A DNA stretch of 64,000 bases from Sphingorhabdus sp. GTDB lineage: Bacteria; Pseudomonadota; Alphaproteobacteria; Sphingomonadales; Sphingomonadaceae. Where the stretch lies: positions 1,358-65,357 of the forward strand of contig JBOFLS010000083.1 in assembly GCA_051657985.1 (NCBI GenBank), written 5' to 3'. Position 1 is the first letter of the stretch; each line of letters starts with the position of its first letter. The position numbers and the translations under genes are program-made. Below the pieces are notes generated by a model, which worked only from the letters and a program-made list of their open reading frames with translations, was not told the DNA's origin and made no database searches. Shown here piece after piece: positions 33,864 to 64,000 of this stretch.

Positions 33864-34556
33864 TTAAGCTGTGGGCATTTCCAGTGCATAGCCTGCGGAA
33901 CGTACTGTACGGATCAGGTCTGCTGTTCCAGGCAAGTTGATCGCTTTCCTCAGGCGCCGAATATGCACGTCGACGGTGCGCAGATCTATGGCACTGTCAA
34001 AGCCCCAGACCGCGTCCAACAGTTGATCACGCGACAAGACCCGGTTCGGACGTTCGAGAAAATGTTTGAGAAGGCGAAATTCGGTCGGACCAAGATGAAC
34101 CGGTTCGCCGCAACGTTTTACACGATAGGAAACAGGGTCCAGCTCAAGATCCGCAAAGACCATGACATTATTTGACAGCGCCGGTCGGCTTCTGCGTAGC
34201 ACCGCTTCTGCGCGAGCGAGTAATTCGCGCGGCGAAAAAGGTTTTGTAATATAATCGTCCGCGCCGGTTTTCAGACCGCGAATTCGATCTTCTTCCTCCC
34301 CCCGGGCTGTCAGCATGACGATAGGGACCGATGCGGTTTCGCTCTGCTTGCGCAGCTGGCGACATATTTCGATGCCCGATACGTTTTCGATCATCCAGTC
34401 GAGAATTATCAAATCGGGCAGCTGCTCCTGAACCATGACCAGTGCCTCTTCGCCATCGCCGGTCTGGCGGACGTCATACTCTTCCTTGTTGAAAGTCCAC
34501 ACGAGCAATTCAGCAATGGCGGCTTCATCTTCGACGATCAGGACTGAGGGTTTCAC
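33864..34556 (-). CDS. phoB: Phosphate regulon response regulator PhoB
   Basis: Receiver domain (LDWM, GADDYITKPFS) plus OmpR wHTH (RTVDVHIRRLRK); follows phoU. Confidence 0.95.
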   Translation of the reverse strand: MKPSVLIVEDEAAIAELLVWTFNKEEYDVRQTGDGEEALVMVQEQLPDLIILDWMIENVSGIEICRQLRKQSETASVPIVMLTARGEEEDRIRGLKTGADDYITKPFSPRELLARAEAVLRRSRPALSNNVMVFADLELDPVSYRVKRCGEPVHLGPTEFRLLKHFLERPNRVLSRDQLLDAVWGFDSAIDLRTVDVHIRRLRKAINLPGTADLIRTVRSAGYALEMPTA

Positions 34557-34573
34557 CCTTTGACAACTCCTTC

Positions 34574-35245
34574 TTACACACTGTCTTGTTCGGAATGATA
34601 CATGCCCGTCGCGGCAAAATAGACCATTTCGGCGACGTTGGTTGCATGATCGCCGATACGTTCGAGGTTGCGAGCGACGAACAGAAGTTGGGCTGCGCTG
34701 CTGATCGTGGCCGGGTTTTCCATCATGTGTGCCACGAGATTGCGAAAGATGCTGTTATAGAAATTGTCAACTTTCTCATCGCGGTCGATCACCTGTACAG
34801 CCAGCGCGGAGTCCCGCGAACCATAGGCATTCAGCACATCGCGTACCATCGACTGGGAAATTTCCGCCATTGCCGGAATCAACGTCAGGGGCTCGAATTT
34901 CGAGGCCCGTTCCATCTGGGCGACGCGTTTGGCGATATTTTTCGCATAGTCTCCGATCCGTTCGACGACGCCGGAAATCTTCAGTGCCGCGATGACATCA
35001 CGCAGATCGTCGGCCATCGGCGCGCGCAAGGCGATGATGCGGATGGCAAGACGATCAACCTCCGCCTCAAGCGCATCAAGCTTTGCATCATTTACTACGA
35101 CCTGTTTTGCCTTATCATGATCGTGGCGGATCAGCGCCTCGATCGCATCGGCGATCGCTACCTCGGCCAAACCGCCCATTTCGGCGATAAGCCCGCGCAA
35201 CTGACCTATATCGGTGTCAAAGGCCTTGACGGTATGTTCAGACAT
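34574..35245 (-). CDS. phoU: Phosphate signalling protein PhoU
   Basis: P.A.DLR, ERIGDYAKNIA and LERIGDHATNVAE repeats. Confidence 0.96.
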   Translation of the reverse strand: MSEHTVKAFDTDIGQLRGLIAEMGGLAEVAIADAIEALIRHDHDKAKQVVVNDAKLDALEAEVDRLAIRIIALRAPMADDLRDVIAALKISGVVERIGDYAKNIAKRVAQMERASKFEPLTLIPAMAEISQSMVRDVLNAYGSRDSALAVQVIDRDEKVDNFYNSIFRNLVAHMMENPATISSAAQLLFVARNLERIGDHATNVAEMVYFAATGMYHSEQDSV

Positions 35246-35256
35246 GGAGGAAATCC

Positions 35257-36021
35257 TTATCCATAGCGACCGGTAATATAGTCCTTGGTACGCTCTTCGC
35301 GCGGATTGGTGAAGATTGTCGATGTATCGTCATATTCCACAATCTTTCCCAAATGAAAGAAAGCGGTTTTCTGCGAAACGCGCGCGGCCTGCTGCATGGA
35401 ATGGGTCACGATGACAAGAGCGTAGCGACTCTTCAGTTCGTCGATCAATTCCTCGATCCGCGCCGTGGCGATAGGATCAAGTGCGGAGCAGGGTTCGTCC
35501 ATCAGGATGACTTCAGGACTTACGGCAATTGCGCGGGCGATGCAAAGACGCTGTTGCTGCCCTCCTGAAAGCGCGGTACCCGCCTCGTTAAGACGGTCCT
35601 TCACCTCCTCCCACAATCCCGCTCGGCGCAGAGATTTTTCTACAATCGCGTCCATATCGGCTTTTGTCGGTGCAAGGCCATGGATGCGCGGACCATAAGC
35701 GACATTTTCGTAGATCGATTTGGGAAAGGGATTTGGTTTCTGAAACACCATGCCAACGCGTGCGCGCAGTTGCACCACATCCATCCGGTCGCCATAGATG
35801 TCTTCGCCGTCAAGCTCGATATCACCGGTTACGCGGCAGCCGGGAATGGTATCGTTCATGCGGTTCAGGGTACGTAAAAAAGTCGATTTGCCGCAGCCCG
35901 ATGGACCGATGAAAGCCGTCACGTTTTCGGTTGCGATGTCGATCGATACATTGTCGATCGCTTGCTTGGCCCCATAGAACACGTCTACACCACGCGCTGC
36001 GATTTTAAGGACTTCGGTCAT
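35257..36021 (-). CDS. pstB: Phosphate ABC transporter ATPase
   Basis: [25 protein letters not shown] and DEPCSALDP motifs. Start placed at ATG 36021. Confidence 0.96.
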
Positions 36022-36025
36022 AGGT

Positions 36026-36907
36026 CTACCAACGTGTTTCGAACTTGTTGCGCAAATAGATCGCAAGGCCGTTCATAGCGAGAAGGAATGCAAGAAGGAC
36101 GATGATCGCTGCCGATGTATTTTGCACGAAACCCTGATCGATTTCATCGGACCAGAGGAAAATCTGCATCGGAAGAACGGTAGCCGCATCGGTTACGCCC
36201 TCCGGCGGGGCAGCGGCGAACATGCGCATGCCGATGATAAGCAACGGTGCGGTCTCACCCAGTGCACGGGCCATTCCGATAATCGTACCGGTAAGGATGC
36301 CGGGCAGGGCAAGGGGAAGCACATGATGAAAGACCGTTTGAACTTTGCTCGCTCCGATGGCGAGTGCCGCATCGCGGATCGAAGGCGGTACGGCATTGAT
36401 TGCGTTACGGCCGGAAATGACAATCACCGGCATTGTCATCAACGCCAGCGTCATACCGCCTACAAGCGAAGAAGAGCGCGGTAACCCCATGAATTGAATA
36501 AAGATCGCCAAGCCGAGCAACCCGAAGATGATTGAGGGCACGGCAGCCAGATTGTTGATCGAAACCTCGACCCATTCCACCCAGCGTTTCTTGGGAGCAA
36601 ATTCTTCCAGATAGATGGCAGCGAGTACACCCATGGGAAATGACAGGGTAAGGGTTACCGTCATTGTCAAAAGCGAGCCTTTAAACGCACCCCAGACACC
36701 CGCATTGGCCGGATCGGTCGAATCCGAACCGGTCAGAAAGGCCCAGTCAATGCCAACGATGCCGTTGCGGACCATTACAAAAAGCAGAAACGCTAAAAAA
36801 CCAAGCGAAAGGGCAATGGCCGCGATCCCAACCGCCTTGAATCGTTTCTCAGCCGCATAACGACGTTTTAGCCGTGCGCTTGCTTCGGGCGATTGCCAAT
36901 TACTCAT
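36026..36907 (-). CDS. pstA: Phosphate ABC transporter permease PstA
   Basis: [12 protein letters not shown] and [10 protein letters not shown] motifs; operon position. Confidence 0.94.
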
Positions 36908-38279
36908 AAGCCTCCCGGAAACGCTTTACGACACGCAACGCGACGATGTTGAGAATCAGGGTTACGACGAACAGCACCAAGCCAAGTGCAAAAGCGGAAA
37001 GCGTAGCGGGATGATCGAAATCCCCATCCCCTGTCAGCAGCCTTGCGATCTGATAGGTAACCGTAGTCATGCTCGCGAAAGGATTGGCCGAAAGATTTGC
37101 CGCCGCACCTGCCGCCATATAAACGATCATCGTTTCGCCGATAGCACGGCTGATTGCCAGCATGATCCCCGCGACGATGCCGGGCAGGGCGGCAGGAATC
37201 ATCACCTTTTTGATCGTTTCGGATGGCGTCGCCCCCATTGCAAGCGAACCGTCGCGCATCGATTGAGGCACTGCGGCGATACTGTCGTCTGCCATTGAGG
37301 AGACGAAAGGAATGATCATGATTCCCATAACCAATCCTGCCGCCAGTGCGCTTTCGGTCGTAGGATTGTCGATACCGATAAAGCCTGCAAAATCGCGCAC
37401 CATGGGCGCAACGGTAAGCGCGGCGAAATAGCCGTAAACGACCGTTGGCACTCCGGCGAGGATCTCAAGCAGGGGCTTGGCCCATCTGCGAAACTGCGCC
37501 GAAGCATATTGACTTAGATAGATCGCACTCATCAGACCGAACGGAATGGCGACGATCATCGCGATGACGGCACCGATGAAGAGCGTACCCCAGAAAAGCG
37601 GAACCGCACCCAGCTTTTCACCCATTTCGGGCGTTACCGGAGCGAACGGATCGGGGTTCCAGTTAAGGCCAAAGAGGAAATCGATAGGGCTGACATAGCT
37701 GAAGAAACGTATCGTTTCGAATATAAGCGAACCGATAATTCCGATCGTCGTCAATATCGCAACAAAGGATGCAAGCAGAAGAATCGCCAAAACGCCGCGT
37801 TCGACCTTGGTCCTTGCCGGAAAATCGGCTTTGATACGCGTATAACCATAGGCCCCACCTGCCAGGGCAAGAACAAAAACAAGCGCTGCCCCGATCCAGT
37901 TGAATCGCCACAACATCGCCTGGATCGGTTTGACCAGCCCAGCGGATTCAGGGCGGAAGGCACCCATGCCATCGTTAAGCGCTGCATTCCATGCCTCGTC
38001 GATGATGGCGGCACGTTCCATATCCATCGCAGGAAGGTTTGCCGCTGCCGGATCCGACAGGATTGCTGCGTGGATCAAGCCAGGCGTCACGGCATTCCAG
38101 ATCAACCAGCCGATCAGCGCCGGAATGACCACCCAAAGCGCCATATGCCACCCGTGCTGATTGGGCAGGGCCCGCAAAGAGCCCCGGCCCGTGAAAAGCG
38201 CCTGTGCTTTCGCACGGGCGCTCCACCATGCAATGGCACCAAGCGCCAACAACAGGAGAGATGTTATCGTTGGTGCCAC
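36900..38279 (-). CDS. pstC: Phosphate ABC transporter permease PstC
   Basis: LAGVPTVVYG and SRAIGETM motifs, N-terminal extension; operon position. Confidence 0.94.
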   Translation of the reverse strand: MAPTITSLLLLALGAIAWWSARAKAQALFTGRGSLRALPNQHGWHMALWVVIPALIGWLIWNAVTPGLIHAAILSDPAAANLPAMDMERAAIIDEAWNAALNDGMGAFRPESAGLVKPIQAMLWRFNWIGAALVFVLALAGGAYGYTRIKADFPARTKVERGVLAILLLASFVAILTTIGIIGSLIFETIRFFSYVSPIDFLFGLNWNPDPFAPVTPEMGEKLGAVPLFWGTLFIGAVIAMIVAIPFGLMSAIYLSQYASAQFRRWAKPLLEILAGVPTVVYGYFAALTVAPMVRDFAGFIGIDNPTTESALAAGLVMGIMIIPFVSSMADDSIAAVPQSMRDGSLAMGATPSETIKKVMIPAALPGIVAGIMLAISRAIGETMIVYMAAGAAANLSANPFASMTTVTYQIARLLTGDGDFDHPATLSAFALGLVLFVVTLILNIVALRVVKRFREAYE

Positions 38280-38288
38280 CGGTCGGGC

Positions 38289-39329
38289 TTATTTCAAGCT
38301 AGCAGGATCCATCAACGTCATTGACGCGACGATCTCTTCGTTCTTCCTACGAACATCGTCAGGAGCGATGACCATGCCTTTTTTCTTCAATGCGCCATCC
38401 GGACCCCACATTTTGGGCCATTGGGCAACGAATTCCTTGAGACCCTTTACCGCGTTCAAATGCGCTTGCTTCACATAGATATAGAGGGGGCGGGCACCGG
38501 GATAGCTGAAATCCGAAATTGCCGCATAGGTCGGCGCAACACCTGACATTGGAATGCCTTTCAGGACATTCATATTCTCTTCAAGGTAGGAAAAGCCGAA
38601 AACGCCGATGGCTTTGGGATTGGCGGAAATTTTCTGCACAATCAGATTATCCGCCTCGCCTGAATCGACATAGGCTCCATCCTCACGGACGCCGGTGCAG
38701 ATTTTCTTGTGCTCGTCCTTGTTGCTGTCCTTTAGAGCTTTCATCGCCGGATCGCTTTCGCAACCCTTGGTCAGGATCAGTTCGGCCAGCGCATCGCGCG
38801 TACCGCTGGTCGAGGGCGGACCATAGACAAGGATCGGAATGGCGGGAAGCGCAGGGTTTACGTCGTTCCAGTTTTTCGCGGTTTGCGGTTTGCCGAACGG
38901 ATTTGCGGCAAGTGCCTTGTACACATCTTCGGGGGTCAGTTTCATGTCCGGCCCGCCCTTGGCTTCGGCAAAAGCGATACCATCAAGACCCACTTGAATT
39001 TCGATGATCTTGTCAACTCCCGACTTTACGCAATCCTCATGCTCGGATTTCTTCATCCGGCGTGATGCATTGGCGATGTCTGGATGCTGCGACCCGATGC
39101 CGGCACAGAACAGTTTCATGCCCGCACCGGTGCCGTTCTGCTCGACCTTTGGAGCCTTTACGCCGGTCTTCGCCGTTTCTTCGGCAACTGCCGCGGCGAA
39201 ATGATAGACAGTGGATGATCCGACCGCCCAAGCATTGTCACGCCCGCCGCCAGAACCACCGCCGCTGCCACAGGCTGCAAGCGCAAGGCTTGAAATTGCC
39301 GTTATGGCGAAAACTTTAACTGAACGCAT
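38289..39329 (-). CDS. pstS: Phosphate-binding lipoprotein PstS
   Basis: Lipobox LAAC, GSSTV, GTGAG, ASRRMK, SGTRD and YPGARPLYIY motifs. Confidence 0.93.
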   Translation of the reverse strand: MRSVKVFAITAISSLALAACGSGGGSGGGRDNAWAVGSSTVYHFAAAVAEETAKTGVKAPKVEQNGTGAGMKLFCAGIGSQHPDIANASRRMKKSEHEDCVKSGVDKIIEIQVGLDGIAFAEAKGGPDMKLTPEDVYKALAANPFGKPQTAKNWNDVNPALPAIPILVYGPPSTSGTRDALAELILTKGCESDPAMKALKDSNKDEHKKICTGVREDGAYVDSGEADNLIVQKISANPKAIGVFGFSYLEENMNVLKGIPMSGVAPTYAAISDFSYPGARPLYIYVKQAHLNAVKGLKEFVAQWPKMWGPDGALKKKGMVIAPDDVRRKNEEIVASMTLMDPASLK

Positions 39330-39502: not shown

Positions 39503-40687
39503 TCAACTTTGAATTCCCACAGCGCCATCGGCGATCATTTTCTCGATCAGGTAATCGGGATAGCCAAGATCATTCAGTATCGATAGGGAATCCTGCCCCG
39601 CCACAGGAAGCGAAACGGAAGCGTTCGGTCTTGTATCACCAAAGACAAGCGGCAGGCATGGCAGCATTGTTTTGCTACCATTTGATAGCGTAACGGGTTC
39701 CAAACCCTTCGATACAGCCAGATGCGGATCTTCAAACAGCTCTTCAGGCTTACCGATAGGGGCAAAGGGCAGTCCCGTTCCTTCAAGTTTGGCAATGATT
39801 TCGGCGCTGGTATAATCCGCAATCAGTTTGCGGATCGGCGGTAAGATGCGTTCGCGGGCCAGGACGCGATCGTTATTCTTACGAATGCTCTGATCGGCCC
39901 ACAGATCGTCCAGACCGAAAAGCACGCAGAATTTTTCCCACAGGGAATCGGTGACGACACCGATGAAGACCGGATCGTCCTTTGTTTCAAAAACATCGTA
40001 GATTGCCCAAGCTGAGATGCGCGCCGGCATTGGTGCAGCCGCTTTGCCGGTAACGGCGTATTGCGCCATATGCTGACCGACAAGATACACGGTGGTTTCG
40101 AACAGGGAGGCAATGACTTTCTGCCCCTTGCCGGTCCGGTGGCGTTCCTCAAGCGCGGCAAGAATGCCGATTACGCCGAACATACCGCCGGTAACGTCGA
40201 TAACGCTCGCACCCGCGCGCAGGGGTTTGCCTGGTGGCCCGGTCATGTACGCAAGTCCACCCATCATCTGCGCGACTTCGTCCAGCGCCGTGCGCTCTTC
40301 ATAGGGGCCAGGCAAAAAGCCTTTTTCCGAACAATAGATCAGGCGAGGATTGGCTGCGCTGAGTGTCTCGTAATCGAGGCCCAACCGATCGAGCGCGCCA
40401 GGGCGGAAATTTTCAACAAGGATATCGGCACGCGCGCATAATTTATGTGCAACATCGATCCCCCCTTCGGATTTCAGATCGAGGCAGATCGATTGTTTAT
40501 GCCGGTTATACATGGGGAAATAGCCTGCACCCGATCCAAGCAGGCGTCGGGTCTGATCGCCGCCGATCGGTTCGATACGGATCACCTCAGCCCCAAGGCT
40601 GGCCAATATATGCCCAACGGCCGGACCCATCACCATATGGGTGAATTCGACAACGCGTAGGCCTGAAAGGGGGGTGGGCAGGGTCAT
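39503..40687 (-). CDS. Class III (CaiB/BaiF) CoA-transferase
   Basis: LSGLRVVEF..MVMGP, ENFRPG, NPRLIYCS and catalytic Asp in ALDEVAQMMGG. Confidence 0.92.
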   Translation of the reverse strand: MTLPTPLSGLRVVEFTHMVMGPAVGHILASLGAEVIRIEPIGGDQTRRLLGSGAGYFPMYNRHKQSICLDLKSEGGIDVAHKLCARADILVENFRPGALDRLGLDYETLSAANPRLIYCSEKGFLPGPYEERTALDEVAQMMGGLAYMTGPPGKPLRAGASVIDVTGGMFGVIGILAALEERHRTGKGQKVIASLFETTVYLVGQHMAQYAVTGKAAAPMPARISAWAIYDVFETKDDPVFIGVVTDSLWEKFCVLFGLDDLWADQSIRKNNDRVLARERILPPIRKLIADYTSAEIIAKLEGTGLPFAPIGKPEELFEDPHLAVSKGLEPVTLSNGSKTMLPCLPLVFGDTRPNASVSLPVAGQDSLSILNDLGYPDYLIEKMIADGAVGIQS

Positions 40688-41586
40688 GAAGCAAACCCCA
40701 AAGGAAGCCCGGCATCGGGGGTGAAGCCATATAACGGTTCGCCCGGTAAGGCCGCGGCAAGGATTTCCCGAACTTTCAGCAATCTCGGCAGGTCGATACC
40801 CGTTTCGATTCCCATCGCCTGCAGCATGAAAACGAGATCCTCCGTCACGATGTTTCCCGATGCCCCGGGCGCAAAAGGACAGCCGCCGATCCCTCCGAGC
40901 GATGCATCGAGTGTCGTGATGCCTTCTTCCAGCCCGGCGAGCGCATTGGCGAGGCCAAGGCCCCGTGTATTATGCAGATGAAGCGTGGTCATCTTATTCG
41001 CACCGACCGCTGCTTTCACCTTGCGGACTAGCCGTTTGACCTGCGCCGGATTGGCATAGCCGGTGGTGTCCGAAAGGCTGAATTCCTGTGCGCCCGCTTC
41101 CGCCGCCGCATCGGCAAGACGCACGACCTGGTCCTCGTTGATCGGTCCTTCCATGGTGCATCCGAAAGCCGTCGACAGCCCAACGGCAAAATGAATTCCT
41201 GCGTCCTTCGCGATCTGTGCCGCCGCGCGGATTTCCTGGAGCATCGCCGAATGGTCCTTGCGCACATTCTTGATGCTGTGCGTTTCCGACATGGAAAAGG
41301 GCATTGACATGCCGTCTACGCCAGCGTCCACCGCGCGCAGCGCGCCCTTTGCATTTGGAATCAAGGTGACCACGGTCAGACCGGGTAATGTCTTGGCAAA
41401 GGCCACAATGTCTGCGGTATCCGCCATTTGCGGAAGCAACGAAGGTGGCACGAAGCTTCCGACCTCAATCTCTCGCACCCCTGCTTCAGCTTCGGCCCTG
41501 ACCCACGCCTTTTTCGCCTCCAGCGGCATGATCCGCTGCGTCGATTGCAGACCATCGCGCGGGCCGACTTCGGAAATCAGAATCAT
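40684..41586 (-). CDS. HMG-CoA lyase family (DRE-TIM) acyl-CoA lyase
   Basis: EVGPRDGLQ, LSDTTG, HLHNTRG and GGCPFAPGASGN motifs. The start ATG 41586 overlaps the upstream stop. Confidence 0.9.
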   Translation of the reverse strand: MILISEVGPRDGLQSTQRIMPLEAKKAWVRAEAEAGVREIEVGSFVPPSLLPQMADTADIVAFAKTLPGLTVVTLIPNAKGALRAVDAGVDGMSMPFSMSETHSIKNVRKDHSAMLQEIRAAAQIAKDAGIHFAVGLSTAFGCTMEGPINEDQVVRLADAAAEAGAQEFSLSDTTGYANPAQVKRLVRKVKAAVGANKMTTLHLHNTRGLGLANALAGLEEGITTLDASLGGIGGCPFAPGASGNIVTEDLVFMLQAMGIETGIDLPRLLKVREILAAALPGEPLYGFTPDAGLPLGFAS

Positions 41587-42164
41587 AGATACACCCATGG
41601 GCGCTTTGCCGTGTCTTGCGCTTGCCAAGCGGAGATGGCGTCACGGTGTTTAAGGGTCAAGTCGACAGCATCAAGGCCCTCGAGCAGCATTAATTTCGTT
41701 TCAGCCTCTATGTCGAAATGAGGATCGTCCACCTTTTGCTTGTTCAGATCAACCGTGACGATGGCGCCTATGATCGAACGGATTGCCTTTTTGCCAAGCA
41801 CAACCGGCAACAGGCCGTTGCGAATGCAATTGTTGTAGAAGATAGGCGCGAAGCTTTCGGCGATCACGCAGTCGATACCATATTCCCTGAGCGCCCAGAC
41901 GGCATGCTCGCGACTTGATCCGCAACCAAAATTCGCGCCGGACAGCAATATGCGGGCTTCGACAAAGTCACGCCGATTCAGAATGAATTCGGGATTGCGC
42001 ACGCGTGTATCGACGTCGGTATAGCGCCAGGGCGCGAACAGACCGTCGGCGAGGCCGGTCTTGCCAGTCGACTTCATCTCGCGCGAGGGGATGATTGTGT
42101 CGGTATCGATATTGTCGAGGATCAGCGGTGCGGCGACGCTGGTGAGAGTGGCGAACGGTTTCAT
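41583..42164 (-). CDS. LeuD-like hydratase/isomerase small subunit
   Basis: NIDTDTIIP, NFGCGSSREHAVWAL and FAPIFYNNC..NG motifs. Confidence 0.92.
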   Translation of the reverse strand: MKPFATLTSVAAPLILDNIDTDTIIPSREMKSTGKTGLADGLFAPWRYTDVDTRVRNPEFILNRRDFVEARILLSGANFGCGSSREHAVWALREYGIDCVIAESFAPIFYNNCIRNGLLPVVLGKKAIRSIIGAIVTVDLNKQKVDDPHFDIEAETKLMLLEGLDAVDLTLKHRDAISAWQAQDTAKRPWVYL

Positions 42165-43525
42165 GGTGCGGTAATTCTGCCTGCAATGGCGCTGGCCGCA
42201 ACAACCTCGGGGCTGGCAATGTGCGTGCGAATGCCCGGACCCTGTCGTCCTTCGAAATTGCGGTTGGTGGAGGAGATTACCCGGCTTCCGGGCGGGAAAC
42301 TTTCACCGCCTGCATAGAAGCACAGCGAGCAGCCGCTTTCCCGCCATTGAAAGCCGGCATCGATGAAAATACGATCCAGCCCTTCGGATTCTGCCGCGCG
42401 CTTGACCGCAGTGGAGCCGGGGACAACCAACGCCAAAATGCCTTCCGCGATCTTCCTGCCCTTCACGATTTCAGCCGCACGGCGAAGATCGGAAACGCGG
42501 CTGTTGGTGCAACTGCCGATAAAAGCGACGTCGATCGGCAACCCGGCAAGGGGCTGACCGGCTTGCAAACCCATATATTCAACAGCGCGAAGGACTGTCC
42601 CTTTGGGGACAGTCCCCAAAGGGACAGTCCCTAAGATTGGGATGCTTTGTTCGGGCGAGGTGCCCCAACTGACCATAGGCGTAAGCTTACCGGCATCGAT
42701 GACAATTTCCCGATCGAAAACGGCGTCTTCATCGGTAGCAAGATCGTCCCAGTCGGGCAGGGGGTCGGGTGCGTAACGTCGACCTTTGAGATAAGCGAGG
42801 GTCTTGGCATCGGGCGCGATGATCCCGCTAAAGGCGCTGAATTCGGTCGCCATATTGCACAGCGTCATCCGTGCTTCCATGTCTAGCGCCCGGACGGCTC
42901 CGCCTGCGAACTCAAGAATATGTCCCTTGCCGCCACCTGCACCTTCTTGTGCAATCAGCGTCAGGATCATATCCTTGGCGGTGACGCCCCCGGGCAGAAT
43001 ACCATCGAACATGACACGCATCGTTCTTGGCTTTGTCACCCGCAACGTCCCGGTCGCCATCGCATGTTCGGCCTCAGACGACCCAATCCCCCAGGCAAGC
43101 GCGCCAAACGCACCTTGCGTACACGTATGACTGTCGGGCGCAATCAGGGTAAGCCCTGGTAACACGATGCCCAGTTCGGGCGAAATGACATGGGTTATGC
43201 CCTGATCGGGATCGTTCACATCGAACAAAGTGATCCCCGCCTGATGGCAGGCGGCGCGGGTTTCGGTAATAAAGGCTTCGCCGCCCTGCATCGGGGTATC
43301 ATCCCCGCGACCGGGCCTGGTATCGACGATATGATCCATGACGGCAAAGACCCGCGCCGGATCGACGACCTTGCGACCGGCTTCCGCCATCGATTTCAGC
43401 GCCGCCGCCCCGGTGCGTTCGTGTAGGAAGATGCGGTCGATCGCGATCAACGCATTTTCCTGCCCCAGGTCGGCAACGACATGGGTATCCCAGATTTTAT
43501 CGAAAAGGGTGCGCGGAAAATTCAG
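42161..43525 (-). CDS. LeuC-like [4Fe-4S] hydratase/isomerase large subunit, probably CTG-initiated
   Basis: DSHTCT.GAFG, FIGSCTN, GCSLC and STNRNFEGRQG motifs. The frame extends upstream of the ORF-track start through conserved PRTLFDKIWDTHVV. The only plausible start is CTG 43525, 6 nt after GGAGG. Confidence 0.88.
   Translation of the reverse strand: MNFPRTLFDKIWDTHVVADLGQENALIAIDRIFLHERTGAAALKSMAEAGRKVVDPARVFAVMDHIVDTRPGRGDDTPMQGGEAFITETRAACHQAGITLFDVNDPDQGITHVISPELGIVLPGLTLIAPDSHTCTQGAFGALAWGIGSSEAEHAMATGTLRVTKPRTMRVMFDGILPGGVTAKDMILTLIAQEGAGGGKGHILEFAGGAVRALDMEARMTLCNMATEFSAFSGIIAPDAKTLAYLKGRRYAPDPLPDWDDLATDEDAVFDREIVIDAGKLTPMVSWGTSPEQSIPILGTVPLGTVPKGTVLRAVEYMGLQAGQPLAGLPIDVAFIGSCTNSRVSDLRRAAEIVKGRKIAEGILALVVPGSTAVKRAAESEGLDRIFIDAGFQWRESGCSLCFYAGGESFPPGSRVISSTNRNFEGRQGPGIRTHIASPEVVAASAIAGRITAP
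42592..42630. repeat. Perfect 39-nt palindrome inside the LeuC-like gene
   Basis: ggactgtccctttggggac-a-gtccccaaagggacagtcc has 19-bp perfect arms. It encodes the GTVP-L-GTVP-K-GTV triplication. Confidence 0.9.
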
Positions 43526-43526
43526 A

Positions 43527-44015
43527 TCAGGCCTCCAGACTGCGCCAGTCTCTACTCACAAGCGTTTCCTGGATTGCGGTGCGCGTTTCGAGCTTGCCGT
43601 TCCTGATCCAGTGCCAGGTGCGGCAGCGGCTTTGCCCATCATCGGCAAGCTGGATCATCTCGTACAGATAAAGCGACGGATCGCCCTGCCGCTGCCAGTA
43701 GAGCATCACGGTGCGGTTATATTCGTCCAGCCCAACTTCTGCGGCCCAGCCGACGATCAACTCGTTATCCCACCATATCCGCTTGTCTCTATATTCGGCT
43801 GGAAAATCGCGGATGTCGGTGCGGCCGTCATCCCATGTGTAGTGATTGGTCTGGTGATAGGGGTGGGGTCCGCTATCAGGAAAGCGGCAGAACAAGCGCG
43901 ATTTATGCTGATCGATCTGTTCGTCCTTATCGTTGAAATAGGTATAGACGCCGTCCCAGACACCTTCATGGCGGGCAAGCAGCGGCATATCTTCGCGGAT
44001 CGACATGATGTTCAT
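43527..44015 (-). CDS. Hypothetical aromatic-rich beta-barrel-like protein (DUF3598/lipocalin-like, tentative)
   Basis: Translationally coupled in the operon; HEG.W.G.Y N-terminus, many Trp/Tyr and alternating strand pattern. The family name is from recall only. Confidence 0.6.
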   Translation of the reverse strand: MNIMSIREDMPLLARHEGVWDGVYTYFNDKDEQIDQHKSRLFCRFPDSGPHPYHQTNHYTWDDGRTDIRDFPAEYRDKRIWWDNELIVGWAAEVGLDEYNRTVMLYWQRQGDPSLYLYEMIQLADDGQSRCRTWHWIRNGKLETRTAIQETLVSRDWRSLEA

Positions 44016-45397: not shown

Positions 45398-45417
45398 AAA
45401 GTTGTCCGGACAAATTT
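45398..45417. promoter_or_regulatory. Palindromic operator, copy 1
   Basis: aaagTTGTCCGGACAAattt in the 84-bp divergent promoter region between the hydrolase and isochorismatase operons. Confidence 0.8.
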
Positions 45418-45475: not shown

Positions 45476-46156
45476 ATGAACGTCGTCGGTACCAAAATGG
45501 TCAGCGATGGAAAGACCGCCAGGCAGATATTCGAGGAAGTGATAGCCAATCCGGCGCGCAAAAAGTTCGGGTTCGGAGAAAAACTGGCGATCATCAATGT
45601 CGATTTCCAGCAGGCCTATACGCGGACGGACATGTTCGTGACCGCCTATGAAACCGATCCGCGGCAGATCGAATATGCCAATAGCATCTCCCGATTGGCG
45701 CGGGCAAAAGGCATGCCGGTAGTCTGGACTCGTGTTGCTTATATGGACAATGCGGATGACGCCGGTGTTTGGGGAACGCGCACCAATATGCCCGATAGCC
45801 TGCAGAATATCAAATACGGGTCCGACCGCCATGCTTATGATCCGCGATGCGAGATCGATGCGAACGATCTGCAATATACCAAACGCATGCCGAGCGCGTT
45901 TTTCGAAACGCAGTTGGCGAGCTATCTGGTTTGGCACAAGGTCGATACCGTCGTGGTGACCGGTGGCAGCACGTCGGGCTGCGTTCGTGCAACCGCAGTG
46001 GATGCTCTCTCGCATGGCTATCGCACGATTGTGCCGATCGAAACCTGCGCAGACAAGCATGAGAGCTACCATTTCGCCAATCTGACCGACCTGCAGTTAA
46101 AATATGCCGATGTCGAACCGGTGCAAGCAGTGATCGACTGGCTGGAGGCGCGCTGA
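45476..46156 (+). CDS. Isochorismatase-family cysteine amidohydrolase (NicF / N-carbamoylsarcosine amidase-like)
   Basis: Asp-Lys-Cys triad in INVDFQ, YTKRMPSAF and GSTSGCVRAT. Start ATG 45476 with GGAAGGA RBS. Confidence 0.88.
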   Translation: MNVVGTKMVSDGKTARQIFEEVIANPARKKFGFGEKLAIINVDFQQAYTRTDMFVTAYETDPRQIEYANSISRLARAKGMPVVWTRVAYMDNADDAGVWGTRTNMPDSLQNIKYGSDRHAYDPRCEIDANDLQYTKRMPSAFFETQLASYLVWHKVDTVVVTGGSTSGCVRATAVDALSHGYRTIVPIETCADKHESYHFANLTDLQLKYADVEPVQAVIDWLEAR

Positions 46157-47031
46157 TGCAGGAGCGCAGCGCCGACCCCGGACTATATGATTATTCTTCC
46201 TATCGTGGTCGCAAGAAAATCACTTGGCCAGGCGGAAAGGCTGTTGCTGTCTGGATTGCGCCAAATCTGGAATATTATGAAATCAATCCCCCCGCGCATC
46301 CCAAGCGAAAGGCCTGGGGGCGTCCGCATCCCGATGTCGTAGGTTGGTCGCATCGCGATCATTCGAACCGGGTTTCGCATTGGCGGATGGCCGATGTTAT
46401 GACCAGGCATGGCTTTCCGGGATCGGTTTCGCTTTCGGTCGCGCTTTGCCAACATCATCCAGAAGTGGTTGCCGATGCCGATGCCCGTGGCTGGGAATTC
46501 TTCAGTCATGGTATCTATAATACGCGTTATGCTTATGATATGTCGGAGGAACAGGAGCGGTCGATTATTGAAGATTCGATCGCAACGGTGCGTGAATGCA
46601 CCGGCCAGACAATCCGTGGCTGGCTTGCCCCCGCGCTGACGCACACCCCGCGCACGCTCGATCTGATCGCTGAATATGGTCTCGATTATACCTGCGATCT
46701 GTATCATGACGATCAAGTGCAGTCGGTAAAGACCAAGTCGGGCGAGCTGGTTTCGATCCCCTACAGTCTGGAAGTCAACGACCACTACGGCTTCTTCGTC
46801 TACAACATGTCGGGCCGCGAATATGCCGACACGCTGATCCGGCAATTCGAACGACTGGCAACCGAGGGTGAGGCTTCGGGCACGGTCATGTGCATCCCGC
46901 TGCATGCCTATCTTATCGGGCAGCCGCACCGCATCGGCCCGTTCGAGCAGGCCCTGAAGCATATCGCCGCCGATGGTCGTGCCTGGATTGCGACGGCAGG
47001 GCAAATCGTCGATGCGTGGAAGGCACAGTAA
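46156..47031 (+). CDS. Polysaccharide-deacetylase-fold hydrolase 1 (PuuE-like)
   Basis: ITWPGGKAVAVW..PNLEY, RD.SNRV, SHG and RGWLAP motifs; IPYSLEVND; HAYLIGQPHRI. Confidence 0.82.
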   Translation: MQERSADPGLYDYSSYRGRKKITWPGGKAVAVWIAPNLEYYEINPPAHPKRKAWGRPHPDVVGWSHRDHSNRVSHWRMADVMTRHGFPGSVSLSVALCQHHPEVVADADARGWEFFSHGIYNTRYAYDMSEEQERSIIEDSIATVRECTGQTIRGWLAPALTHTPRTLDLIAEYGLDYTCDLYHDDQVQSVKTKSGELVSIPYSLEVNDHYGFFVYNMSGREYADTLIRQFERLATEGEASGTVMCIPLHAYLIGQPHRIGPFEQALKHIAADGRAWIATAGQIVDAWKAQ

Positions 47032-47936
47032 TGACGCTCGATCCCACCTATCTTCAATATTCCAACCGCCGCCATGGGTACGATCACGACCTGTTCGAAT
47101 GGACGGCAATCCACGATCGCAAACCCGTCGTCTGGCCCGGCGGGAAGTCGGTCGCAATATGGCTGTGCGTCAGTCTAGAATGGTTCCCTATCACTCCTAA
47201 CGATACACCCTTTCGCGCGCCGGGGCATATGCAGACCGCCTATCCCGATTATCGTCATTACACCGCACGCGATTATGGCAACCGGGTGGGTGTCTATCGG
47301 CTGCTCGATGCCTTCGCAAAAGTCGGAACCAAGGCAAGTTTCGCCACCAACAGCGCGATTGCGGAACGCTACCCTGCACTGATTGCCGACATTGTGCATG
47401 ACGGTCATGAAATTATCGCGCATTCGACCGATATGAACGGGACGATTGCGACCGGCATAGCTGTCGAGGAGGAGCGCAGGCTGATCGGCAGTTCGCTTGA
47501 CACATTTGAAAGTATAACGGGCAAGCGCCCCCAGGGCTGGTTGTCGATCGCCCGATCGCAAAGCTGGAATACGCCTGATCTGCTTAAAAAGGCCGGAGTG
47601 CGCTATTGCTGCGACTGGGTGAATGATGAACTGCCCTGGCGTTTCAAAAATGGCTTGATCAACCTGCCCTTGAACCACGAACTGAGCGATCGACAGATCA
47701 TCACCGTGCAGCAGCAATCGGCGGACAGCTATGCGCAATCGATGCGCGATGCGTTCGACTGGCTGGCCGGCGAAGCGACCGGTAGAATATTGCCGATGCA
47801 CCTGACGCCTTACATCATGGCCTTACCTTACCGTATCGATGCGCTTGAGGATTTGCTGGTGGATCTAGCCGGTCGTCAACAGGCTTGGGTCGCAACCGGG
47901 GCCGATATCGTCGATGCGTGGGAGGCGCAAATATGA
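47031..47936 (+). CDS. Polysaccharide-deacetylase-fold hydrolase 2 (PuuE-like paralogue)
   Basis: VVWPGGKSVAIW...SLEW, RDYGNRVG and GWLS motifs; LPLNHELSD; HLTPYIM..PYRI. The start ATG 47031 overlaps the upstream TAA. Confidence 0.82.
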   Translation: MTLDPTYLQYSNRRHGYDHDLFEWTAIHDRKPVVWPGGKSVAIWLCVSLEWFPITPNDTPFRAPGHMQTAYPDYRHYTARDYGNRVGVYRLLDAFAKVGTKASFATNSAIAERYPALIADIVHDGHEIIAHSTDMNGTIATGIAVEEERRLIGSSLDTFESITGKRPQGWLSIARSQSWNTPDLLKKAGVRYCCDWVNDELPWRFKNGLINLPLNHELSDRQIITVQQQSADSYAQSMRDAFDWLAGEATGRILPMHLTPYIMALPYRIDALEDLLVDLAGRQQAWVATGADIVDAWEAQI

Positions 47937-59798: not shown

Positions 59799-59816
59799 AT
59801 TTGTCCGGACAACTTT
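59799..59816. promoter_or_regulatory. Palindromic operator, copy 2
   Basis: atTTGTCCGGACAActtt in the divergent region between the receptor and the membrane protein. Its reverse complement is identical over 18 nt to 45398-45415. Confidence 0.8.
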
Positions 59817-59862: not shown

Positions 59863-60543
59863 ATGGTTCTAGCCGATTATGCCTATCCGACGCTAGTGTA
59901 TGTTCATCTGCTTCTGTTCGTGTTGTGGCTGGGTGCCGACGTCGGAGTGTTCTTGCTCGGCCAGCATTTTCGCAAGCGTCATGTCTATTCTCTCGACCAA
60001 CGTATTGCACTGCTGAAACTGCTTGTGATCGTCGATCTGACGCCGCGTACCGCCTGGGCGCTCATGGTGCCGCTTTCGTTGACCGTCAGTTCTATGGGCG
60101 GCTGGTGGGAGGTTCCCGCTTTGCTGGTCTGGGGATCTTGGGCAGTGGCCGCTTTTTGGCTTTGGCTCGTCTTCGATGCGCATGCGCACGACATGACCCC
60201 ACGGGCCGCACGCGATCGGCGGTGGGAAGGTTGGCTGCGTTATCTGTTGTGCGCTGCCTATTTATGGCTGGGGCTGCAGTCGGTGCTGACCGGTAACCCG
60301 ATCGCCCCTGGATGGCTGGCATGGAAGGCGCTGCTCTTTGGACTGATCTTTGCTGCAGCGATCATGATCGATGTGACGTTCAAGCCCGTAGGTGCGCAGC
60401 TTGGCCGCTTGCTCTCCGAGGGATCATCCGACGAAACCGAAATTCCGCTTTTGCAGACAATGAATCGTACGCGGCTGTGGGTCTGGTGCGTCTACGCACT
60501 ACTGGTTGCCACCTCTTGGCTCGGCGTAGTGAAACCTACATGA
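59863..60543 (+). CDS. Hypothetical integral membrane protein
   Basis: 226 aa, about 5-6 hydrophobic segments, His in the first helix (VHLLLFVLWLG). No family recognised. Confidence 0.75.
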   Translation: MVLADYAYPTLVYVHLLLFVLWLGADVGVFLLGQHFRKRHVYSLDQRIALLKLLVIVDLTPRTAWALMVPLSLTVSSMGGWWEVPALLVWGSWAVAAFWLWLVFDAHAHDMTPRAARDRRWEGWLRYLLCAAYLWLGLQSVLTGNPIAPGWLAWKALLFGLIFAAAIMIDVTFKPVGAQLGRLLSEGSSDETEIPLLQTMNRTRLWVWCVYALLVATSWLGVVKPT

Positions 60544-60560
60544 AACAAAAAAGGCTTGAC

Positions 60561-60582
60561 TAAAGTTGTCCGGACAACTTTA
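60561..60582. promoter_or_regulatory. Palindromic operator, copy 3 (perfect 22-mer) abutting a -35-like hexamer
   Basis: TAAAGTTGTCCGGACAACTTTA, starting at the last base of TTGACT (60556-60561), 18 nt upstream of the CitE-like start. Confidence 0.85.
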
Positions 60583-60600: not shown

Positions 60601-61410
60601 ATGCAATCCATACTCTTCGTTCCCGGCAATCGGCCGGAGCGTTTCGCTAAAGCGTTGGCAAGCGGGGCGGATTGCGTATGCATCGATCTGGAAGATGCGG
60701 TTCCCGCTGCCAATAAGGCGAGTGCAAGGGATGCAGCGCTTGCCGCCATTACCGATGATGCGCGTCTGGCGCTTCGGATCAACGCCGTCTCAACCCGTGC
60801 CGGACTAGCCGATATTCTTGCCCTTACCGAGACTGGAAAGCGACCGTCGCTGCTGTTCCTGCCAATGGTCGAAGCCGCTGCCGAGGTCGCAATCGTACGT
60901 TCGCTGCTTGCCGATGCGGACATAGGTTTCGTACCGCTGATTGAAACCGTCGCAGGGCTGCGCAACGCCGATGCGATCGCGGCGGAGCCTAATGTAGCAT
61001 CGATCATGCTGGGTGGGGCGGATTTTTCGGCACAGCTCGGCGTCACGCTAAGTTGGGAACCCTTGTTATTTGCGCGAAGTCAATTGGTGATGGCGGCGGC
61101 CGGCGCGGGGAAATCGGTAATCGATGTGCCGTATATCCATCTCGATGACGAAGCCGGGCTGATCGAAGAGGCGCAGAAAGCAAAGGCGCTTGGTTTTTCG
61201 GCAAAGGCTGCAATTCATCCTGCACAGATTGCACCAATCCATTCGGTTTTCCGTCCGATTGCCAGCGAAATTGCCGAAGCCAAGGAAGCAGAGGATGCTT
61301 TTGCCTCGGCAAATGGTGCCGCGGTGCGTTTCAGAGGCCGGATGCTCGAAGCGCCCGTGATGGCACGCTATCGACAGATACTTTCTTTGAAGGACAGGAT
61401 AGATGCGTGA
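60601..61410 (+). CDS. CitE/HpcH-family acyl-CoA lyase (citryl/citramalyl/malyl-CoA lyase-like)
   Basis: SILFVPG, DLEDAV, LRIN, LIET..GL, G.ADF and AIHPAQI motifs. Start placed at ATG 60601. Confidence 0.9.
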   Translation: MQSILFVPGNRPERFAKALASGADCVCIDLEDAVPAANKASARDAALAAITDDARLALRINAVSTRAGLADILALTETGKRPSLLFLPMVEAAAEVAIVRSLLADADIGFVPLIETVAGLRNADAIAAEPNVASIMLGGADFSAQLGVTLSWEPLLFARSQLVMAAAGAGKSVIDVPYIHLDDEAGLIEEAQKAKALGFSAKAAIHPAQIAPIHSVFRPIASEIAEAKEAEDAFASANGAAVRFRGRMLEAPVMARYRQILSLKDRIDA

Positions 61411-61912
61411 AGCCGTGAAGGAAGTCGCACCAGGGCGTTTCCGTGAAGTACAAGGTCGTTTTTTTGAAGATTTCGAAGTTGGCCATATTTATGAACACCG
61501 CCCTGGACGGACTATCACCGATGCCGACAACGTCTGGTTCACGCTTCTGACGATGAATACCCACCCGGCGCATTTCGACTATGAATTTTCGAAGAAGACC
61601 GAATTTGGCAAGCCTCTTGTCGTCAGCCCGCTGACGATTGCGCTGATGACAGGCATGAGCGTTTCAGACACCAGCGGCAAGGCGATCGCCAATCTTGGTT
61701 GGGACGAAGTACGGATGGTGCATCCACTGTTCGTTGGCGATACACTCTATTGCGAGAGCGAAGTGCTTGAAAAACGCGAAAGCAAGAGCCGACCCGATCA
61801 GGGAATCGTCACCTTCAAGACGATCGGCAAAAATCAGGAAGGGATCATTGTGAGCCATTACAAGCGCACCGTGCTTGTATGGAAGAAGGGTTGCGGCCCG
61901 GTAGATGATTAA
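61403..61912 (+). CDS. MaoC-family (hotdog-fold) acyl-CoA hydratase
   Basis: GRFFEDF.VG, RTITDADN..F..LTMNTHP.HFD and ANLG.DEV...HP.FVGDT motifs. Confidence 0.9.
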   Translation: MREAVKEVAPGRFREVQGRFFEDFEVGHIYEHRPGRTITDADNVWFTLLTMNTHPAHFDYEFSKKTEFGKPLVVSPLTIALMTGMSVSDTSGKAIANLGWDEVRMVHPLFVGDTLYCESEVLEKRESKSRPDQGIVTFKTIGKNQEGIIVSHYKRTVLVWKKGCGPVDD

Positions 61913-61923
61913 GGAGCTCCGAT

Positions 61924-63102
61924 ATGGCAACCGCCCCCAATCTTAGTTCGGCGCCAATGAGCGCCGATGAAGAAACAGCATTGCTCGACGCGATTCAGAA
62001 ATGGATCGACAGGGAGGTCGCGCCCAATGTGCAGAAATATGATCATGACGATATCTGGCCGGAAGAGATCGTCCAGCAGATGACCGAGATGGGCTTGTTC
62101 GGAGCTACTATCGGCCAGCAATATGGTGGGCTGGGTCTTTCTGCGGTAACATATGCGAAGATCGTTGCGCTGATATCGTCCTATTGGATGGCCATTACCG
62201 GCATCTTCAATTCCCACCTAATTATGGCCTGTGCAGTCGAACGTTTTGGAACGCCAGCACAAAAAGCGAAATGGCTGCCCAAATTCGCGAGCGGTGAGAT
62301 TCGCGGCGGTCTGGCGCTTACAGAACCAAATGCAGGCACCGATCTTCAAGCGATCCGCACTGTCGCGGAAAGAGACGGCGACGATTATGTGATCAATGGA
62401 ACCAAGACCTGGATTTCCAATGGGATCAACGGCAGCTGTTTCGCGCTGCTGGCAAAGACCGATTCCAAGGCGGAGCCGCGCTACAAAGGGATGAGCTTTT
62501 TTATCGCGCCCAAACAGGAAGGCTTCACTACGGGAAAGAAATTCAAAAAACTGGGCTATAACTGCATTGATAGCGCCGAATTGATCTTCGACAATTATCG
62601 CATCCCGGCCGAAAATCTGATTGGCGGTGTCGAAGGGCAAGGCTTCTTTCAGGCCACCGGAGGGCTCGAACTTGGGCGTATCAACGTTGCTGCGCGCGGC
62701 GTCGGGCTTTCGGAAGGGGCCTTGCGGATGGCAACCGAATATGCGCAGCTTCGCCAGACGATGGGCAAGCCGATCAGCGAGCACCAAGCAATCCAGCTTT
62801 ATCTCGGTGAAATGGTTACGCGTGCTCGCGCGGCGCGCTTGCTCACTTTCGATGCAGCCGAAGCTTACGACCGCGGCGAACGCTGTGACATGCAGGCGGG
62901 CATGGCAAAATATTTCGCCTCCGAAGCCGCCGTCGAAAATAGCCAGACCGCGATGCGTATATTCGGCGGTTACAGCTATTCGAAGGAATATGACATCGAA
63001 CGGTTGTACCGGGATTCGATGCTGATGTGCATCGGCGAGGGGACCAACGAGATGCAGCGCATGATTATTTCCAAACAATGGATTGCCAGGAACAAGATTT
63101 GA
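61924..63102 (+). CDS. Acyl-CoA dehydrogenase
   Basis: LALTEPNAGTD, INGTKTWISNG, GRINVAA, MAKYFASE, FGGYSY and IGEGTNE motifs. Confidence 0.93.
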   Translation: MATAPNLSSAPMSADEETALLDAIQKWIDREVAPNVQKYDHDDIWPEEIVQQMTEMGLFGATIGQQYGGLGLSAVTYAKIVALISSYWMAITGIFNSHLIMACAVERFGTPAQKAKWLPKFASGEIRGGLALTEPNAGTDLQAIRTVAERDGDDYVINGTKTWISNGINGSCFALLAKTDSKAEPRYKGMSFFIAPKQEGFTTGKKFKKLGYNCIDSAELIFDNYRIPAENLIGGVEGQGFFQATGGLELGRINVAARGVGLSEGALRMATEYAQLRQTMGKPISEHQAIQLYLGEMVTRARAARLLTFDAAEAYDRGERCDMQAGMAKYFASEAAVENSQTAMRIFGGYSYSKEYDIERLYRDSMLMCIGEGTNEMQRMIISKQWIARNKI

Positions 63103-64000
63103 GCGTTCGCCTCCCCTTAAAAGGCTTTCGCATCATCAGCGCGGAACAATATGGTGCCGGTCCTTACGGCACGCTCTTTCTGGCGCAGATGGGGGCGGAG
63201 GTTATCAAGATCGAGCCGCCAAAAGGCGGGGATACCGCGCGCAGCGTTGGTCCGCATTTCTTACGTGAGGGCGAAAGCCTGTATTTCCAGACCTTTAATC
63301 TAAATAAGCGTTCGTTGACTTTGGACTTGATGACAGAGCAAGGCCAAGAGGTGCTGCACCGACTGGTGAAAGACGCGCATGTCGTCGCCAACAATCTGCG
63401 TGGTGACGTTCCTGCAAAAGCGGGGCTGACCTACGAACAGCTGAAGATTGTCAATCCAGCTATAGTCTGTGCTCATGCCTCTGCCTATGGTCGCGATAAC
63501 GACCGCGCGAAATGGCCGGGGTATGACTATCTGATGCAGGCCGAGGCTGGGTTCTGCGCATTGACTGGCGAACCGGATGGTCCTCCCGCGCGCATGGGGC
63601 TGTCGATGGTCGATTTTGCCACCGGTACGCAAATGGCGGTTGGCTTGCTTGCAGCTTTGCTCGATGCACAACGGACGGGCGTCGGCTGCGATATCGACGT
63701 CGATCTGTTGTCGAGCGCGCTGCATCAAATGACCTATCCCGCGATCTGGTATATGAACGAGGGCGACGTGACCCAGCGGGTAGAACGATCGGCGCATCCC
63801 TCGGCTACCCCCAGCCAGATGTTCCGCGCCGCCGATGGGTGGATGTTCGTGATGGCACAGATCCCGAAATTCTGGCCAATTCTCTGCGAACGGATTGGTT
63901 ATCGCGAATTGATCGACGACGCGCGCTTCGCGAATTCCAAGGCGCGATTGGCGAACCGATCCGTTTTGACCGAAATTCTAGATGCGATCTTTGTATCCCA
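63099..64000 (+). CDS. Second class III (CaiB/BaiF) CoA-transferase, runs off the window end
   Basis: Absent from the ORF track. Manual translation from TTG 63099 (overlapping the upstream TGA) gives MSVRLPLKGFRIISAEQYGAGPYGT..LAQMGAEVIKIEP...NLNKRSLTLDL and later GYDYLMQAEAG. Confidence 0.88.
   Translation, partial: MSVRLPLKGFRIISAEQYGAGPYGTLFLAQMGAEVIKIEPPKGGDTARSVGPHFLREGESLYFQTFNLNKRSLTLDLMTEQGQEVLHRLVKDAHVVANNLRGDVPAKAGLTYEQLKIVNPAIVCAHASAYGRDNDRAKWPGYDYLMQAEAGFCALTGEPDGPPARMGLSMVDFATGTQMAVGLLAALLDAQRTGVGCDIDVDLLSSALHQMTYPAIWYMNEGDVTQRVERSAHPSATPSQMFRAADGWMFVMAQIPKFWPILCERIGYRELIDDARFANSKARLANRSVLTEILDAIFVS

Follow-up and report, generated by a model that had tools for sequence, protein, structure and literature searches.

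A conserved CoA-dependent dicarboxylate module of non-orthologous enzymes in Sphingorhabdus, a candidate side branch for saturated substituted succinates

The window analyzed here, a 64,000-nucleotide (nt) stretch from Sphingorhabdus sp. (GCA_051657985.1, contig JBOFLS010000083.1, positions 1,358 to 65,357), ends in genes for a CitE-like protein, a single-domain MaoC hydratase, an acyl-CoA dehydrogenase (ACAD) and a class III CoA-transferase, together called module 2. The genes are real and conserved, and they represent a variant of dicarboxylate chemistry of the known CoA-dependent kind, assembled from non-orthologous enzymes. They head an operon of roughly 15 genes, probably controlled by the GntR/UTRA repressor that also serves the remainder of the cluster; this cluster includes a LeuCD and 3-hydroxy-3-methylglutaryl (HMG)-CoA-lyase-family operon (module 1). 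Module 2 and its operon probably handle a saturated substituted succinate as a side branch of a larger pathway. New here are the non-orthology relative to the actual Pseudomonas genes, the epimerase residues of an MmgE/PrpD protein (PrpD1) encoded in the operon, the nested distribution of the module, and the question raised by a Glu in the lid of the CitE-like protein.

The original prediction placed the four genes in one operon behind the third copy of an operator, and the open reading frames, their tight junctions and the operator bear this out. The citE-like and maoC genes overlap by 8 nt, an 11-nt gap with AGGAG separates maoC from the ACAD gene, and the latter overlaps the transferase gene by 4 nt (TTGA). 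The operator palindrome, TTGTCCGGACAA, has exactly three exact copies in the 3.48-Mb genome, every one in this cluster (Table 1), while the shuffled-sequence expectation is 0.19 matches at one mismatch or fewer. Of 73 related loci, 69 have its core motif no more than 150 nt away from the gene that opens the module. A GntR/UTRA repressor encoded on contig C59 likely binds this predicted operator. A promoter scan at the operator returned no canonical sigma-70 site, the -35-like hexamer there being seen by eye only. A one-mismatch version, TTGTCCAGACAA, at L126:12221 (contig C247 of this genome) lies between genes for a TonB receptor and a DUF1330 protein, with a DUF1838 gene nearby, and is likely a fourth candidate site of the regulon. 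On C59 (L124:20-790), as in Sphingorhabdus contaminans, an open frame spans the full length opposite the repressor gene.

The remainder of the operon lies beyond the window, on contigs whose ends overlap successively by 139 nt each (C83-C59-C133-C247). The joined contigs add the end of the first transferase, a second class III transferase and, on the other strand, the repressor gene, along with genes for PrpD1, a second MmgE/PrpD protein (PrpD2), a PaaK-like ligase, an amidase, HapK, a short-chain dehydrogenase/reductase, a third deacetylase-fold hydrolase and a crotonase. For a 120-aa gene, the Atlas search was uninformative. All four module genes appear to be under purifying selection, with dN/dS of 0.04-0.15 where dS was computable, though dS is near saturation. 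GC content (0.51-0.60, genome 0.567) gives no sign of a foreign origin of the region.

Based on 80 sphingomonad loci chosen by ACAD similarity, for which counts are partly limited by contig ends, the same gene order is kept in most. MaoC is present in 76 of these loci, the first transferase in 74, the CitE-like protein in 66, the second transferase in 62 and PrpD1 in 53. Among 121 sampled Sphingomonadales, an ACAD orthologue was found in six, an orthologue of the module-1 lyase (at least 60% identity) in 21 and the cluster methyltransferase in 13. All six ACAD-bearing genomes also have the module-1 lyase orthologue and five of them the methyltransferase. The ACAD carriers are therefore nested within the carriers of the module-1 lyase, suggesting module 2 is an accessory branch. 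This co-occurrence and the common operator support the link to module 1 that had been proposed. Outside this group, the same ACAD clade (60-70% identity) adjoins MaoC, CitE-like, transferase and GntR genes in Variovorax, Aminobacter, Pseudosulfitobacter and Azospirillum, and the neighbourhoods in the latter two also have PrpD and dicarboxylate TRAP transporters. The genes next to the module include amide and ring hydrolases, though not always the same ones: this cluster has an amidase and a PuuE-like gene, G360 and G318 have hydantoinase A/B, Azospirillum has an amidase and Tistrella a deacetylase. Their presence in such differing layouts points to a diacid derived from an imide, half-amide or lactam. 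Reduced modules, either maoC-ACAD-transferase(s) or ACAD with two transferases, occur at L056, L015 and L006 with no neighbouring ring-hydrolase genes. The mobilisable plasmid pJE1 of Sphingomonas sp. JE1 (L122) carries the upper cluster with module 1, PrpD2, HapK and hydantoinase; the ACAD module was not in the 41 kb viewed.

The pathway that we infer from these genes would run in six steps. An amidase, the deacetylase-fold hydrolases or lactam hydrolases would free a diacid from a succinimide, succinamate or lactam. PrpD1 would epimerise the free acid, one or both class III transferases would form its CoA ester, and ACAD would yield a fumaryl- or mesaconyl-type ester. Hydration by MaoC would then give an (S)-citramalyl-type ester, the mirror image of the product expected from LeuCD and module 1. 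For the final step, there is about an even chance that the CitE-like protein cleaves this ester to an acyl-CoA and a 2-oxoacid. Less probably, it may mainly hydrolyse the thioester for release or repair, in which case a different enzyme, perhaps the HMG-CoA-lyase-family protein, would do the cleavage.

The residues of the encoded proteins are consistent with parts of this scheme. The catalytic Asp is invariant in both class III transferases in the alignment of related loci. The ACAD motif is IGEGTNE, with Glu372; the Gly preceding the catalytic Glu, which we take to be isovaleryl-CoA dehydrogenase-like, suggests a beta-carbon branch in the substrate. PrpD1 retains His102, Tyr148, Lys202 and Lys266 of methylsuccinate isomerase (Msi) in 53 of 53 loci, based on the catalytic residues given for Msi (PMC12290011). 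The enzyme families and the PrpD1 His, Tyr and Lys residues thus support the idea, already in the original prediction, of a saturated, succinate-type route. PrpD2, without the Tyr, His152 and Lys202 of Msi, was rejected as a member of this module as it is also present in clusters without ACAD. The crotonase as a module-specific epimerising partner is unsupported given its wide occurrence (54 of 121 Sphingomonadales).

Several observations weigh against the assignment of module 2 to a saturated succinate in a larger pathway. The substrate range of these enzyme families is wide, and PrpD1 is only 33% identical to Msi, with Asn in place of His88. Kin genomes are not independent in the co-occurrence counts. 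The module can stand alone, as at G004, G422, L006 and L008 its core is found without ring-hydrolase genes nearby; with the queries used, such genes were not found in the G004 genome. As for the sixth step, the lid residue of the CitE-like protein is Glu in 103 and Asp in 17 of its 120 closest homologues; the latter form a subclade, and the three checked fill the same operon slot.

In the window protein, the lid residue is Glu250 (codon GAA at 61348), aligning with the lid Asp of RipC, PA0883, CLYBL and Deinococcus CitE, and all 66 loci with a CitE-like gene encode Glu there. The catalytic Arg59 and the Mg-binding Glu115 and Asp141 are invariant wherever aligned across loci. According to PMC3832036, the malyl-CoA thioesterase group, with Glu, is the one exception to a lid Asp that the rest of the superfamily keeps. 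The D320A variant of CLYBL is described as catalytically null. Lyase and thioesterase activities have both been reported for Rv2498c and human CLYBL, related enzymes often being bifunctional. The closest solved relatives of the CitE-like protein are the lyases RipC (3QLL, the best PDB match) and PA0883. Glu250 as proof of a thioesterase was rejected: given the Asp orthologues in identical operons, Glu250 does not fix the role of the protein. Overall, the protein has an even chance of being mainly a lyase, while a mainly thioesterase role is a possible but weaker assignment. Asp-bearing relatives of the window CitE-like clade also occur in other families (L096-L099).

It is possible, as the original prediction had it, that the cluster contains two routes that run in parallel and are each complete, ending in genuine lyases of opposite handedness, one route for the unsaturated and one for the saturated diacids of a single parent compound. 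The lyase activity of RipC and PA0883 argues for it, as do the Asp orthologues in the same slot, the operator common to both modules, the Asp-type Ccl-clade genes that accompany this ACAD clade in Pseudosulfitobacter, Variovorax and Aminobacter, and the JGI pipelines, which automatically label close homologues (S)-citramalyl-CoA lyase. The handedness itself follows a family-level rule. LeuCD-type hydration of citraconate yields the (R) acid. The module-1 protein belongs to the HMG-CoA-lyase family (PRK05692, 273.5 bits, cut-off 246). A member of that family, PA2011, is specific for (S)-HMG-CoA, while PA0883 and Rv2498c cleave (R)-HMG-CoA and (S)-citramalyl-CoA (PMC6689899). By our own reasoning from Cahn-Ingold-Prelog priorities, (S)-HMG is spatially equivalent to (R)-citramalyl. 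Together these make the contrast between an (R)- and an (S)-specific route sound, at the level of families only. However, Glu250 in all 66 loci with the gene speaks against two true lyases. At least seven loci also lack the citE-like gene, five of them having the operator immediately before maoC, and so do two of the six sampled ACAD-bearing genomes, whose module is otherwise intact. As 15 of the 21 module-1 genomes are without module 2, one parent compound need not require both.

Under a second alternative, which we regard as rather unlikely, the modules act in series: the CitE-like protein would be a thioesterase, module 2 would take the saturated acid no further than a hydroxy acid, and the one cleavage would fall to the HMG-CoA-lyase-family enzyme of module 1. 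A lid Glu has been published only for the malyl-CoA thioesterase group (PMC3832036), and module 2 is nested within the module-1 carriers. In addition, four related metagenome-assembled genomes (MAGs) without the citE-like gene have a different, Glu-bearing paralogue at the end of their upper-cluster operon. This paralogue groups (100/98) with putative Rhodobacteraceae Mcl2, while the window protein groups with RipC-like sequences, apart from these Mcl2, in a midpoint-rooted tree of a hand-picked subset that is without the R. sphaeroides reference sequence. However, the Mcl2 assignment is based on motif, copy number and context, the names given being generic, and the replacement is from one lineage. 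The link between Glu and thioesterase activity is a correlation with one characterized enzyme, and orthologues with Asp are found in the same operon position. No enzyme inverting the hydroxy acid was identified, the widespread crotonase of the operon being non-specific.

The resemblance of module 2 to Yersinia RipABC and to the Pseudomonas Ict, Ich and Ccl enzymes with a dehydrogenase, also part of the original prediction, holds for the enzyme families but not for their identity. The CitE-like protein scores 224 bits with the RipC equivalog (NCBIfam NF038242, cut-off 375), below the 265 bits of another CitE-like gene of this genome, and MaoC 239 bits with that of RipB (NF038241, cut-off 340). 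Both transferases are PF02515 class III enzymes rather than of the RipA type (acetyl-CoA hydrolase/transferase family). Identities with the P. aeruginosa cluster are 37% for Ccl, 35% for Mcd (PA0879) and 33% for Ict and Msi, and the 169-aa MaoC has no BLAST match to Pseudomonas Ich (about 275 aa) at E 1e-3. ACAD falls in a separate clade (100/100) from PA0879, which has VAPISTN in place of IGEGTNE. A Pseudomonas-type triplet is encoded elsewhere in this genome, with 67% identity to Mcd, 45% to Ict and 42% to Ich (contig C193:63044-66185, equal to L132:1045-4186); the first transferase of module 2, with its catalytic Asp kept, is 33% identical to Ict. A RipC-like gene with a lid Asp is about 7 kb from the triplet, L127:11107-11925 is listed with it, and a second PA0879-like ACAD is encoded on C249. 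Given this closer set, plain methylsuccinate or itaconate use would be better assigned to C193. An ordinary itaconate or methylsuccinate utilization operon of mosaic origin, in the cluster by chance, is thus improbable, although MaoC shares 60% identity with an annotated RipB, each of the five functions in the methylsuccinate cluster (PMC12290011) has a family counterpart in this operon, and a few relatives carry the core alone. Besides the clade of the dehydrogenase and the Pseudomonas-type set, the operator in common with ring-hydrolase operons and the co-transcribed ligase, amidase and hydrolase genes speak against it.

Module 2 probably acts not on itaconate or methylsuccinate themselves but on a relative that derives from a ring and carries more substituents. 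The regulon encodes TonB receptors, an MFS carrier, three PuuE-like hydrolases, isochorismatase-like and signature amidases and a nitrilase-fold protein, as well as a hydantoinase A/B on another contig. In S. contaminans, the cluster adds a second LeuCD, an amidase and an ICL-family lyase. Such a hydrolase set and the second LeuCD and ICL-family lyase suit several differently substituted maleimides and succinimides. The leading named candidate, a tentative one, is that the whole regulon encodes a pathway degrading tetrapyrrole-derived compounds (bilins, chlorophyll or haem fragments), in which module 1 would take 2,3-disubstituted maleimides and module 2 succinimides from reduced pigment rings. 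It is suggested by the imide, amide and lactam hydrolases, the enzymes suited to disubstituted maleates, the DUF3598 folds, and reports of maleimides and hematinic acid from leaves and lake sediments (PMC7318184). The DUF3598-like barrel matches BFA1 (Z 17.0), Nostoc DUF3598 (15.2), CpeS bilin lyase and OlmO (13.7 each) and the nitrobindins, which bind haem (13.1-13.6), a fold likeness that does not by itself show function. Other N-heterocycles may be the substrate instead.

Table 1. Module 2, the operator copies and neighbouring features in the window.
Feature	Position	Strand	Remarks
CitE/RipC-like TIM-barrel, putative beta-hydroxyacyl-CoA lyase or thioesterase	60601..61410	+	PF03328, 269 aa
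Single-domain MaoC enoyl-CoA hydratase, RipB-like	61403..61912	+	PF01575/PF19315, 169 aa
ACAD, FadE3-like clade	61924..63102	+	best PDB match 4IV6
Class III CoA-transferase, truncated by the window	63099..64000	+	PF02515; rest on contig C59
Operator copy 3, palindrome TTGTCCGGACAA	60566..60577		just downstream of -35-like TTGACT (60556-60561)
Operator copy 2	59801..59812		between TonB receptor operon and 226-aa gene
Operator copy 1	45402..45413		between module-1 operon and amidase/imide-hydrolase operon
Module 1: LeuC, LeuD, HMG-CoA-lyase-family protein, class III CoA-transferase	39503..43525	-	presumed maleate-type route
Isochorismatase-like amidase and two PuuE-allantoinase-like hydrolases	45476..47936	+	presumed ring opening and nitrogen removal; motif and homology for amidase
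DUF3598-like 10-stranded beta-barrel	43527..44015	-	module-1 operon; fold common to BFA1, CpeS bilin lyase, nitrobindins and OlmO
Conserved all-helical 226-aa protein	59863..60543	+	behind operator copy 2, upstream of module 2; in 55-58 of 80 loci

The 226-aa protein has invariant His15, Asp26 and Asp58 and, at another place in the cluster (L081:18981-19682), a paralogue of 26% identity; it has no family match, and a fold search matched it to nothing more specific than helical bundles (Z up to 10.6). For the FAD oxidoreductase and the alpha/beta-hydrolase, the only PDB matches are distant. An ordinary pstSCAB-phoU-phoB operon (33864-39329) is the left border of the cluster. On contig C201 of this genome (L180:6749-12386), a second HMG-CoA-lyase-family gene, hydantoinase/oxoprolinase A and B genes (78-79% identical to the copies on pJE1) and a class III transferase gene are probably another arm of the same pathway. 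In S. contaminans (L083:7110-13636), genes for an aldehyde dehydrogenase, a cytochrome c, the second LeuCD, a second isochorismatase-like protein and the lyase of the ICL/PrpB family are found with an operator nearby.

Literature searches on the cluster, on DUF3598, DUF1838 and HapK, and on the breakdown of bilins or maleimides by bacteria, in a coverage with subscription papers mostly outside it, brought up no relevant work. In the literature searched, no function has been published for this large, conserved regulon. The natural Asp and Glu orthologues in one operon slot make a possible Asp-to-Glu lid switch from lyase to thioesterase testable, and the automatic (S)-citramalyl-CoA lyase annotation may be wrong for this clade. 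Likewise, the nitrogen ring used by these common freshwater and marine sphingomonads becomes directly testable. If it comes from pigment fragments, the regulon would account for a microbial sink of chlorophyll and bilin carbon that has so far been missing.

Parts of this chemistry are known from other systems. In the 2,3-dimethylmaleate route of nicotinate fermentation (DmdAB and Dml), a LeuCD-type hydratase and a lyase act on disubstituted maleates, while here the host is aerobic and cleavage presumably CoA-dependent. Cyclic-imide catabolism likewise proceeds by imide and half-amide hydrolysis. Rv2498c of Mycobacterium tuberculosis and human CLYBL are CitE-like enzymes acting on (S)-citramalyl- and (S)-malyl-type CoA esters, but they are in the range of 30% identity, with a lid Asp and another gene context. 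Mcl2 of Rhodobacter sphaeroides (PMC3832036) has a CitE fold with a lid Glu in common with the window protein, in one subclade of whose relatives, however, Asp reappears. Yersinia-type RipABC has the same order of ripC-like then ripB-like genes; here there is no RipA-type transferase, a dehydrogenase and a putative epimerase are added, and the lid has Glu for Asp. The PA0878-PA0883 cluster of Pseudomonas and that of Cupriavidus necator (Ich, Mcd, Msi, Ict and Ccl; PMC12290011) have five enzyme families in common with this operon, including a class III transferase and the catalytic His, Tyr and Lys of Msi, kept here in PrpD1. However, identities with PA0878-PA0883 are 33-37%, the hydratase is of the single-domain RipB type rather than Ich, there are two transferases and two PrpD proteins, the predicted control is by GntR/UTRA and not LysR, and the operon lies within a ring-amide cluster and encodes a lid Glu.

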